In this document: positions 54,522 through 57,500 of the stretch, piece by piece
Layout: each line of letters opens with the position of its first letter
How positions within the stretch are numbered: the first letter of the stretch is position 1
Assembly (NCBI GenBank): GCA_000165345.1
Contig: CM000431.1
Coordinates: forward strand, 224,001-288,000
Direction: 5' to 3'
Length of the DNA stretch: 64,000 bases
Made by a program: the position numbers

Positions 54522-57500
54522 TAATCTCTTAGATAATTCTACTTTTAAGTATAATGCCTAATTTAAGGCCTAGGAATCTAAAATTGAGTGTATTGAGAGC
54601 TATTTTCTCTCAATATGTACTACCAAAAGTAGTGAAATCTCTAATAAAGAATAGATTAAAATGTTTCCAATAAGTTACTTTTATTCACATGCTTTTATTT
54701 ACTCTTAAGTTTTCATCAAATATTCATATTAAACATATTTTTTTGGTCACCAGTTTCCCGCCTTAAAGTAGTTGTAGAAATAGGGGGAAAAATTACTGGT
54801 ATAATTATTCGAGCCAAAGAATAATGAACTATTAGAATTGACAATATTTTATTTATTTAAAATCTAATCTTACAATTTTATTAAATAACGCATTTTGCGG
54901 GTAATTGAATTTCTTTTAATGATATAACTACAAAATGTGAGCCTCCATATGTAATCCCACGTAGTCTAGGGGCTAGGATACTCGGCTTTCACCCGGGCGA
55001 CCCGGGTTCGATTCCCGGCGTGGGAGTGTTTTATCCGTGAAGGAGGATTGCACCGCTGCCTGACTCCGATCGCACTGTTTAGCCCGCAGTGCGAGCTGTA
55101 GGAGTTCGGGCCTCGGTTTGGTCTGGGGAGAGGAGGTTCCACCGCGGATAGTTTTTTTAATGTATTTTTTGTGTCTTGAACTTTTATAGTTTAGATGAGT
55201 GTTTTCTAGCAATTTTTTATTTATATGAGAGAATAGTTGTTTTTTTGTTAAAACATAATAAGTGTTAATTAGTATGCTGATAGGAAAGATAGAATGAAAA
55301 AAAGAAACGTCTTAATTGGAGTAACGGGGAGCGTTGCAGCAATAAAAATTCATGAATTTATAAAGAAATTAAAAGAAAAAGTTATAAGTAACAATATTGA
55401 AATAGAGATCAAAGTTGTTGCAACTGACTCAGCAAAAAACTTCCTCAATGGTTTAGCTTTAGATTTATTAGTAGATTGTCAAGATGAATTTGGTAATTGG
55501 AAGAGTATGGGGGACGATATTCCTCATATAAGCCTCAGGCAATGGGCTGATTTATATATTATTCTTCCTTTGTCGGCAAATACGTTGGCAAAACTATCTA
55601 ATGGGCTTTGTGACAATGTTTTGGTAAGTTAGCAAAAGTTGTGATTTATGGAGAGGTTGATAAGGTATGAAAATACAAGTTAATGAATACAACGAGTTAT
55701 ATTGTTTTGATATGGAAAATTCTATAAATTTACGAATATGAATAACTTTAACATTTCATAACAATATAAAGTTGTAATGGCAACACCTAAATATGCTAGA
55801 ATATTGCTATTTCGAAGCTTTTTAAACAAACATGTTTAAAGAGTGCATATAGTTCTTCTCCAATTAAAAATCTTGTTCATAACTAATTAACTGACTTAAT
55901 TCAGACTAATATTGCAAGAGCTTGGGATTTCAAGAAACCCATTATAGTTTGTCCCGCAATGAACAGTTTCATGTGGGAGCACCCAATTACTTTAACTCAA
56001 ATTAACATTCTTATCTCTTTTGGTTACAAAGTGGTATTCCCAATTGAAAAAAAGTTGGCATGTGGCGAATATGGGATGGGTGGAATGCAAGAAATTGAAA
56101 AAATTGTTGAACAAATTCTTCTTGAACTAAACTCATCCTAAACAATTTTAGCTTATGGATAATATAAATTTATTTTCAGTCATTTCATGTTAACTACATG
56201 TCATCATTGCATGCAAATCTGCATGCACTACTACGTGTATTATTTAATGGAAAAACAAGAAAAAAAAATTATAGGCTTAAATAATATTTAGAGACTCCAT
56301 TTTAAGTAACTCAAGAGTGTAAAGGTAGATAACATATCTAGATTTGGAAGATAATTTAGAAATAGATGCAACAAATCTAGTTTTAATACAGTTATTCTAT
56401 CTATTTCTTTGTAAAATCAGACGGATAATTAAGAAATAGTACAGAACTGAATAACAGTTCCATCATAGTCTTTAATGACAATTCATCCCATACATCCCAA
56501 AGGACGTGATGGTTGAGTTTCACTCCAATATTTCCCAAAATTTTCTTCTCCTTTTTCAAATTGTAAACCTCTATTTCTACCAGAATTTCTTTGGAATACA
56601 TTCCTTCTTTGATCAATACTAATGTCTAATTGCTGGAAGAAACTTGGAACTCCCAAATTTGACATATAGTGTACTACATATGGTGGAGAAGATACAAATG
56701 GATAACTACAAGTTACTTCTGGATACTTATATCTTGGGGAATATGGATAGTAATCAAATGGGACAGCAGAAACCGGTGGTAATATAACAGAGTCAGGATG
56801 AAATACTTGTTCTTCTTGCATTTCTTCCTCTACTGGATTCATGCATTGTGCCAAAACTGATAAATCTTTTCTTGGCGAATTTATGTTAACCATTATTAAC
56901 TTTTTTTTTTAACTTAAATGAAATTCTAAACTTTGCTCACAATTACTGAAAATTTATTCTTTTTATTTAATTTTTATCTTTTTACTACTTTTGTCTTCGT
57001 GACTAATTTAATGATTTACTATTTCCTGATTTACATGAGGCGCCTTGTCTCCAACATGCGCATTTCGGTACTCAAAGTAGATTAGTTGATAAACATTGGT
57101 AATTCAAAAAAAAAAAAAAAAAGATTTTATATTTGGAAATAATAGGGTTATAGCCAAATTTGTAATAGCTTGTATATTGAGTATGCTTATATTTATATTT
57201 GAGTGTTCCAGCTTCAACTTTTAAATAATTTAATAATTTTTAATAATTTTATGAAATATCAAATAAATCAAACATACGGCGCCAAATTTCGGCGCCATTG
57301 ATATTAATTGATTAAAACCGTAAACATAGAAAAGAAAATTATCGCAATTAAAATTACAAGAAAAGTAGGGAGAATATCGCAAAATTTAGTATATTAGGAG
57401 TGGATCTTAATATATTTTTGATTCTGTTTTAAGATTAGATCCTCACTTGTAGTAATGATTCTTTTTGCAAAACATTTTGAATGCAAATAGAATTTCATGC

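Follow-up and report, generated by a model that had tools for sequence, protein, structure and literature searches.

In Yarrowia lipolytica, tRNA-Trp(CCA) and the small RNA RUF70 are encoded together in dicistronic genes of RNA polymerase III (Pol III), as described by Acker et al. 2008 (PMC2566860). A putative unit of similar design is described here from chromosome 3 of Cryptosporidium parvum, in a 64-kb stretch of DNA that is called the window throughout (mean GC content 29.8%). The gene for tRNA-Glu(UUC) is followed by a tail of 125 nt (55027-55151 of the window, to which all positions refer), of which the part from 55031 onwards forms a helix-closed element of 121 nt. By analogy with the described systems, the best reading is that tRNA-Glu(UUC) and its tail would constitute one dicistronic Pol III unit of a tRNA and a noncoding RNA (ncRNA).

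The closest analogue is tRNA-Trp-RUF70 itself. In both cases an orphan structured RNA lies directly 3' of the tRNA and the T-track has moved to the end of the downstream RNA; RUF70 has no internal promoter of its own, and the Cryptosporidium tail, judged by eye, probably has none either. The fold is backed by compensatory changes in both, and processing by tRNase Z is presumed in both. RUF70 differs in being about 70 nt long, in standing behind all 13 tRNA-Trp copies of one genome and in having been seen by northern blot, whereas the Cryptosporidium tail, known here from sequence alone, was examined at one tRNA-Glu(UUC) locus, measures 65-170 nt, keeps its position genus-wide and evolves faster than its flanks. 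The two RNAs have no sequence relationship.

The Yarrowia tRNA-5S units and the plant tRNA-Gly-snoRNA genes (small nucleolar RNA snoR43) likewise use a tRNA as a Pol III promoter cassette, carry the second RNA 0-7 nt after the tRNA and release it by tRNase Z (PMC2566860, and Kruszka et al. 2003 as cited there). Their passengers, however, belong to known families (5S rRNA and C/D snoRNA), whereas the Cryptosporidium tail has neither an Rfam match nor C/D or H/ACA boxes. The TMER genes of murid gammaherpesvirus 68 (MHV68), which are among the units listed in PMC2566860, combine a tRNA-like leader, one or two hairpins of about 60-80 nt, a Pol III T-run terminator and tRNase Z processing, and their hairpin sizes come near those of the Cryptosporidium tails, with about 65 nt in the bovis clade and two hairpins in the gastric clade. 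Unlike theirs, the leader in Cryptosporidium is a true tRNA with perfect conservation. Neither Dicer nor Argonaute is present in Cryptosporidium, in which no microRNAs have been found (PMC9465071). The RUF6 RNAs of Plasmodium falciparum offer a further likeness, being GC-rich small RNAs of an AT-rich apicomplexan genome and predicted Pol III transcripts (PMC9262227). They form a family of 15 relatively sequence-conserved members with their own Pol III promoter elements, situated in var gene clusters (PMC9262227), whereas the Cryptosporidium tail is a single locus in the sequence sampled, sequence-labile and, as we read it, dependent on its tRNA.

The arrangement in 18 Cryptosporidium lineages

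The syntenic interval containing the tail has the gene order ARF - tRNA-Glu - flavoprotein, and was gathered from 18 distinct lineages by way of the neighbouring ARF and flavoprotein genes. The sequences represent C. parvum, C. hominis (two strains and L008), C. tyzzeri, C. meleagridis, C. ubiquitum, chipmunk genotype I, C. felis, C. ryanae, C. bovis, C. xiaoi, C. muris, C. andersoni, C. serpentis and five further assemblies or read-set contigs (L004, L006, L007, L009 and L012). Species labels were taken from the source protein names and from a reading of the assembly accessions, and the split of L021 and L022 into C. xiaoi and C. bovis is presumptive. An exact match of the ARF protein placed the region on chromosome-scale contigs of Cryptosporidium, and the window is identical from the tRNA to the terminator with loci L001, L002 and L005. 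By our own coordinate arithmetic the locus lies at about CP044420.1:282,061-282,192 in L002 (GCA_015245375.1/CP044420.1), which we take to be C. parvum IOWA-ATCC.

A GC-rich tail is contiguous with the tRNA and on the same strand in 18/18 lineages. It has 51-67% GC, is 65-170 nt long and ends in a run of T5-T8, compared with 15-42% GC in the flanks (300 nt upstream and 130 nt downstream). The 72-nt tRNA-Glu is 100% identical, base for base, in all 18. In C. parvum the tail has 59% GC over its 125 nt, with a peak of 64% per 100 nt, and every 100-nt segment of the 64 kb with a GC content of at least 52% falls inside 54919-55181. The tRNA and its tail are the sole GC island of the window, and sit between two Pol II genes. 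A metagenome scan with the 3' half of the tRNA gave 0 matches.

Of the 18 lineages, 11 show no run of at least four Ts before the terminal T-run is reached from the tRNA; in these the linker has at most T3 and the element starts 0-5 nt past the tRNA. The remaining seven, all of the parvum-ubiquitum clade, have a T4 at tail positions 3-6. Overall, runs of at least four Ts are about five times rarer in the tails than in the flanks (0.39 vs 2.11 per 100 nt). Because Pol III stops at T-runs and most lineages have none in between, the simplest reading is that transcription started at the tRNA must continue through the tail. We infer, with strong support from these sequences, that the tail is co-transcribed by Pol III.

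The length of the tail and its distance to the neighbouring genes vary among lineages. In L006 (L006:5058-5132), a lineage near C. parvum with flanks 88% identical, the long arm of about 55 nt has been lost; the 70-nt tail that is left still has its closing helix and purine-rich segment together with a short hairpin and, as a deletion mutant of natural origin, indicates the minimal part retained. Comparison of loci L014-L018 and L020-L022 shows that the ARF-to-tRNA spacer of C. parvum (54525-54954) measures about 430 bp, that of the gastric clade about 1.46 kb and that of the bovis/ryanae/xiaoi clade about 0.67 kb. Between tail and flavoprotein gene, C. parvum and the gastric clade have about 140 bp, and the bovis/ryanae/xiaoi clade has about 700 bp.

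Fold and substitution rate of the tail

A consensus structure was computed by RNAalifold from an alignment of nine intestinal-clade sequences (alignment A1). It consists of an end-closing helix, a long arm with an apical hairpin, and a second short arm. In this three-way model of 31 pairs, 92.8% of alignment cells hold standard pairs, compared with 37-51% in slid-partner controls, and 13 pairs are changed on both sides, compared with 2-5 in those controls. On four of five measures 0 of 500 shuffles reached the observed value, and on the fifth, further pair types, 6 of 500 did so. A rod-like model, in which 55046-55055 pairs with 55114-55124, contains 36 pairs; 90.9% of its cells are paired, compared with 25-50% for slid controls, and 14 pairs show double changes, including swaps of A-U to G-C between C. 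parvum and C. hominis. Taken together, the two models have 13-14 double-change pairs against 2-8 in slid controls, and 6-8 of 500 shuffles reach their number of further pair types but none of 500 their values on the other four measures; the shuffle controls ignore phylogeny, whereas the slid-partner controls account for it. The two folds are about equally backed by covariation. In the closing helix, 93.8% of cells are paired in A1, with changes on both sides in 4/9 pairs.

The fold is also specific to one strand. The consensus of the + strand has 31 pairs and an energy of -21.2 kcal/mol, whereas the reverse complement of the same nine sequences gives 5 pairs and -3.4 kcal/mol, and G.U pairs are numerous in the fold. 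These data point to selection on the fold as a + strand RNA. Analogous folds with compensatory changes are found in the gastric group, the bovis/ryanae/xiaoi group and the L004/L007/L012 group; the gastric tails form two hairpin domains, and the bovis-clade hairpin is about 65 nt long.

Folded as a single sequence, the C. parvum tail reaches -53 kcal/mol on the + strand (z = -2.3; 5/200 shuffles as stable) and is weaker on the opposite strand (-41.2 kcal/mol, z = -1.9). The fold beats most shuffles and is only moderately unusual, so that on its own it proves little; the strong evidence is comparative. In the 202-nt precursor of tRNA plus tail, the two parts fold as separate domains, and neither ARAGORN nor Rfam detects a tRNA-like fold in the tail. 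The closing helix, TTATCCGTG paired with CGCGGATAG, has 9 bp, 2 of which are G.U; the minimum free energy (MFE) fold uses 8 of them, and the helix starts 5 nt past the discriminator base in C. parvum. In an alternative fold a second short arm is split off at 55111-55139.

A preliminary description of this DNA had reported most of this anatomy. The GC-rich segment adjoining the 3' end of tRNA-Glu, the 9-bp terminal helix and the TTTTTTT directly after the element are all present (Table 1), and further helices join the closing helix and the hairpin into a long arm. The hairpin described as a perfect 7-bp one exists, although its stem is 9 bp long around the loop TTAGCCC. Of the 5S-like topology with a closing helix and two arms, the three-way fold is admissible; since the rod-like fold fits the covariation equally, it is not required. 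The suggestion of a Pol III ncRNA co-transcribed or processed with the tRNA is well supported by the genus-wide arrangement, the missing terminators in most lineages and the strand-specific covarying fold.

Little of the primary sequence is retained. The best-kept sequence in the intestinal clade is the purine-rich stretch GGGGAGAGGAGGTTCC (55125-55140), which is largely unpaired. GAGGAG(G) is the most widely common k-mer among all tails, with a mild excess over shuffles in lineages that are not independent, and GGTCTG is likewise mildly enriched. In the apical hairpin the 7-nt loop is kept, whereas the stem covaries, with A-U becoming U-A in chipmunk genotype I. The loop context CYGY-YU(N)RCCM-GCRG, a motif picked post hoc, recurs as cuguUUAGCCCgcag in the parvum group, ccguUGGCCCgcgg in C. 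felis and cugcCUUGCCAgcag in C. andersoni, so that it is common to three deep clades, including the gastric one, and not to all. The purine-rich segment and the apical loop are candidate binding sites. A covariance model built from A1 recovers its training set as well as C. felis (E = 0.013), and detects no further copy in the window. The family is recognisable across the genus only by synteny.

The tail also diverges quickly. Identity between C. muris and C. andersoni is 89-90% in the flanks and 65% in the tail; between C. parvum and C. meleagridis it is 84-86% and 74%, and between L004 and L007 80-91% and 73%. When only substitutions were counted, the odds ratio of tail to flank was 1.8-4.5 in six comparisons (Fisher p from 3e-8 to 0.16). 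Pooling of four independent pairs gave a rate of 0.21 for the tail, against 0.05-0.11 for five flanking segments and 0 for the tRNA. Overall, substitution in the tail runs at 2-4 times the rate of the flanking intergenic DNA, and the excess in rate, like the enrichment in GC, is bounded by the tRNA 3' end and the T-run and leaves the 5' flank unaffected. The slowest segment outside the tRNA lies 150 to 51 nt upstream of it (54805-54904; pooled rate 0.054); signals for the ARF 3' end, or else upstream Pol III elements, might reside there.

At tRNA loci and their transcribed flanks, transcription-associated mutagenesis raises mutation 7-10-fold, mainly as C->T and G->A changes (Thornlow et al., PMC6130373). 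By comparison with those loci, the high rate of the tail would most simply be the mutational footprint of heavy Pol III transcription, and a rate explained in this way is itself a hint that the tail lies inside a Pol III unit. Such a bias would soon make a neutral tail AT-rich, as the remaining intergenic DNA is. As 51-67% GC and the base pairs have been kept in 18/18 lineages against that bias, selection is required. The target of selection is the fold and the GC-richness, not most of the sequence.

Known RNA families, proposed mechanism and rival explanations

Covariance models of 4,227 Rfam families were scanned against the window at gathering thresholds, against 54850-55250 (401 nt) at E<=10 and against 11 orthologous loci of other species at E<=5. 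No family, 5S_rRNA included, matched the element in the 401 nt or in the window, where tRNA-Glu alone was found, and the orthologous loci of the 11 other species gave tRNA-Glu matches only. The scan had been proposed in the preliminary description with 5S_rRNA, SRP, U6, Y_RNA and others in mind, and returned none of them for the element. For Y RNA, vault RNA, signal recognition particle (SRP) RNA, RNase P/MRP RNA and U6 there was no covariance-model match. In C. parvum the annotated SRP RNA, RNase P RNA, U1-U6 and U3 lie at other loci (PMC9465071), as does a candidate RNase MRP RNA (PMC1796607).

A divergent 5S had been the specific suggestion of the preliminary description. A fusion of a tRNA with a divergent or degenerate 5S rRNA gene would have a precedent in the Yarrowia tRNA-5S units (PMC2566860), and the C. 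parvum element recalls 5S rRNA (RF00001) in its length (121 nt against the 5S-like ~120 nt), in its 9-bp end-closing helix, in the two arms of one of its two admissible folds and in that it would be made by Pol III. The resemblance to the 5S 3' domain that had been noted shrinks, however, to a local match of 13 nt (TCGGGCCT-GGTT), whose score about 8% of shuffles reach (p ~0.08). In the other species the local similarity is ordinary (p 0.1-0.9 vs shuffles), and global alignment of the tails to 5S is not significant against shuffles either; the reference in these alignments was a human 5S sequence, and they are a lead and not a database result. The tails of other species range from 65 to 170 nt and are 52-90% identical to that of C. 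parvum, and a 5S identity is incompatible with orthologues that vary so widely in length and sequence. The rod-like fold, moreover, fits as well as the two-armed one, and the canonical 5S clusters of Cryptosporidium lie elsewhere in the genome, on chromosomes 3 and 7 (PMC10888889). The 5S reading is effectively refuted, and we assign it next to no probability.

Other known classes were rejected as well. The hallmarks of snoRNAs are C (RUGAUGA) and D (CUGA) boxes by a terminal stem, or a hairpin-ANANNA-hairpin-ACA order with ACA 3 nt from the 3' end. For C/D and H/ACA snoRNAs there was no Rfam match; by eye, no C box was seen at the 5' stem, no D box at the 3' stem, and no conserved ACA before the T-run among the orthologues. 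A tandem tRNA-tRNA gene was dismissed because ARAGORN finds one tRNA per locus and the Rfam tRNA model matches only tRNA-Glu. The template of a telomerase RNA (TER) spans at least 1.5 telomere repeats, and the Cryptosporidium repeat is of the CCTAAA type. A ciliate-type Pol III TER was rejected because the RNA strand of the C. parvum tail, read by eye, contains no permutation of CCUAAA that exceeds 6 nt, nor is one conserved in the other tails. An antisense open reading frame (ORF) at 54973..55212 (79 aa) was dismissed since it overlaps the tRNA and is incompatible with the indels among species.

No mention of the unit was found in the literature searched, which included full text for two strings of 15-16 nt (one of them also in RNA spelling); CryptoDB or the supplement of PMC9465071 may still list it as an anonymous ncRNA. 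That study, in which C. parvum small RNAs were sequenced (Li et al. 2022), lists 43 novel intergenic small RNAs. The absence of a description may be due to the fact that only synteny reveals the family: covariance pipelines would see a narrow range of it, and read assembly may merge the tail with the tRNA.

The textbook consensus sequences of the internal Pol III promoter are TRGCNNAGTGG for the A box and GGTTCGANNCC for the B box. If the tRNA and tail form a dicistronic unit, the A and B boxes inside the tRNA would recruit TFIIIC, TFIIIB and Pol III and drive both parts. Pol III would pass the tRNA and then, in C. parvum, a leaky T4, most other species having no T-run there; it would read the 125-nt tail and halt at the T7. 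RNase Z, whose site is predicted between 55026 and 55027 from general tRNA 3' processing, would cut after G55026 and yield mature tRNA-Glu and a 5'-monophosphate RNA of about 125-130 nt. In the freed RNA the ends would be paired in the 9-bp helix with the 3' oligo-U left out, and such an oligo-U is typically bound by La. The helix would enclose a long, G.U-rich arm with the apical hairpin and the unpaired purine-rich segment. An orphan RNA of this form might act by shape, as a protein-binding scaffold or a decoy, with its expression slaved to a heavily used tRNA gene. Transcription of both parts from the boxes of the tRNA and release by RNase Z are suggested by Pol III and tRNA biology and by the experimentally characterised precedents; stability of the RNA and any function in trans are putative. 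We consider it probable that the tail is a discrete, stable small RNA with a shape-dependent function.

Several observations weigh against this reading. The data do not distinguish a stable, trans-acting product from a structured trailer that is quickly degraded, and the T4 of C. parvum (55029-55032) could end a share of the transcripts. By k-mer coverage no motif is universal across all clades, the covariance model from A1 misses the tails of distant clades, and the z-scores of single-sequence folds are modest in several species (range -0.04 to -5). No other tRNA gene is present in the approximately 94 kb of C. parvum sampled (the window and 30 kb more), and the main text of PMC9465071 is silent on any tRNA-linked RNA.

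The main rival is a structured trailer. In this explanation the tail would be co-transcribed, would serve the tRNA gene in cis and would be degraded after cleavage; the roles proposed are Pol III termination or recycling, the timing of La binding and RNase Z processing, and suppression of R-loops. It would account for the conservation of shape and GC alone, without sequence or length (65-170 nt), and for the invariant position right after the tRNA, and folding of nascent RNA is reported to lower R-loops and transcription-associated mutagenesis (PMC4691750). An aid to termination or processing, however, would have no need of 65-170 nt, of a helix that joins the ends, or of the conservation seen in the unpaired purine-rich segment and the apical loop. 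Stable Pol III RNAs usually have paired ends and a 3' oligo-U, and the tail mutates faster than its flanks despite its strong fold, not slower. A cis-acting trailer is unlikely in our estimate, with a small share of the probability left to it. The compensatory changes, the G.U pairs and the strand asymmetry also bear on the proposal that the GC island matters as DNA, as a promoter or insulator, in nucleosome positioning or through GC-biased gene conversion by the tRNA, with the RNA fold incidental. Its attraction is that the island is the sole one in the window, between two Pol II genes and 136 bp upstream of the flavoprotein ATG, and that tRNA genes act, as is generally known, as boundary elements. 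Those signs of selection point instead to a + strand RNA, and the downstream gene lies about 140 bp away in some species and up to about 700 bp away in others. GC-richness and fast evolution are, furthermore, confined between the tRNA 3' end and the T-run, which speaks against processes that act symmetrically on the DNA, biased gene conversion among them, and we regard a DNA-level role as highly improbable.

The T4 that separates tRNA and element in C. parvum and its close relatives would suit an independent small-RNA gene with its own promoter beside a tRNA that ends there. Yet 11 lineages have no run of at least four Ts between the two and an element 0-5 nt past the tRNA, and the T4 residues themselves take part in the closing helix. 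No space is left for a promoter upstream, and inspection by eye gave no convincing A or B box inside the tail, the best B-box-like string (GAGTTCGGGCC) having 3 mismatches and, again judged by eye, not being conserved in other clades. Such a gene has very little probability. A different account of the divergence would make the tail an arms-race RNA, akin to viral VA, EBER and the MHV68 TMERs, in which a divergence faster than neutral reflects host-specific adaptation and not transcription-associated mutation. The 5'-monophosphate RNA released by RNase Z would be a poor RIG-I ligand and, once delivered into the infected enterocyte, could act on host factors; possible modes are a decoy for sensors of double-stranded RNA (dsRNA), a hairpin substrate for host Dicer (the parasite has no RNAi machinery of its own), or action on the resident dsRNA virus of the parasite. 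Nothing beyond the anatomy, the rate and the host-restricted diversity speaks for an arms race, to which we would give a slim chance.

The locus, its neighbours and the meaning of the proposed unit

The features of the tRNA-Glu locus are collected in Table 1.

Table 1 Features of the tRNA-Glu(UUC) gene and its tail in the C. parvum window
Feature	Position	Strand	Basis and remarks
tRNA-Glu, anticodon UUC, leader gene	54955..55026	+	ARAGORN; Rfam RF00005, 57.8 bits; G55026 is the discriminator base
A-box-like internal Pol III element TAGTCTAGGGG in tRNA	54962..54972	+	Sequence inspection; putative promoter role
B box GGTTCGATTCC in T-arm of tRNA	55005..55015	+	Perfect match to textbook consensus; putative promoter role
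Linker TGTTTT with T4 run at 55029-55032	55027..55032	+	Last Ts enter the closing helix; T4 a possible weak or leaky Pol III stop
Closing helix, 5' strand TTATCCGTG	55031..55039	+	MFE fold; covariation
Long irregular arm	55046..55124	+	Helices 55046-55050/55119-55124, 55052-55055/55114-55117 and 55058-55067/55101-55111 (MFE and centroid folds)
Apical hairpin: 9-bp stem TCGCACTGT (55070-55078)/GCAGTGCGA (55086-55094), 7-nt loop TTAGCCC (55079-55085)	55070..55094	+	
Purine-rich segment GGGGAGAGGAGGTTCCAC	55125..55142	+	Mostly unpaired in MFE and centroid folds; alignment A1 columns ~110-127
Closing helix, 3' strand CGCGGATAG	55143..55151	+	MFE fold; covariation
T7 run, predicted Pol III terminator of the whole unit	55152..55158	+	Sequence

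The ORFs of the window include those of a calcium-dependent protein kinase, an ARF GTPase and an FtsJ methyltransferase. The ARF GTPase (183 aa, 53973-54524) is identical as a protein in ten assemblies (L001-L010), including C. parvum and C. ubiquitum, despite very different tRNA tails, and the Cryptosporidium ARF orthologues all fall in one cluster at 90% identity. On the other side, the flavoprotein gene (PPC-decarboxylase/HAL3-like, PF02441; 55294-56141, +) is split, with exon 1 reaching to near 55630 and a second coding block at about 55959-56141; its product has 188 aa in annotated assemblies and 112 aa in the Logan and TU502 gene calls. The calcium-dependent protein kinase (538 aa, 61974-63590, +) has a kinase domain and EF hands, and is a gene of the drug-target CDPK1 type; it served as a marker of organism and chromosome. 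A single ORF of 9,678 codons (121-29157, +) consists of repeated modules of about 900 aa, each closing with a short poly-Thr run, and looks from its sequence like a giant mucin-like secreted protein. It holds an uninterrupted tract of about 360 threonine codons (14231-15311; ACT/ACA-type; TRF period 3, 360 copies), which causes a spike in GC skew of -0.585 at 14-16 kb.

Dicistronic Pol III genes promoted by a tRNA are of a known but rare kind. New in the present case are the apicomplexan lineage, an arrangement kept genus-wide despite near-total turnover of the sequence, and the combination of accelerated substitution with maintained GC and pairing. A covarying fold with 51-67% GC in a genome of about 30% GC provides a clean natural test of structure-only selection under transcription-associated mutation.

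For annotation, the locus shows that homology tools miss such a tail, as Rfam returns nothing and a covariance model from one clade fails genus-wide, and small-RNA pipelines may merge it with the tRNA. It follows that tRNA-promoted RNAs may be overlooked in other compact AT-rich genomes. A hypervariable tail between an invariant tRNA and conserved flanks could also serve as a short marker for typing Cryptosporidium species. If a function in trans holds true, the tail would be a candidate regulator in a parasite without RNA interference.

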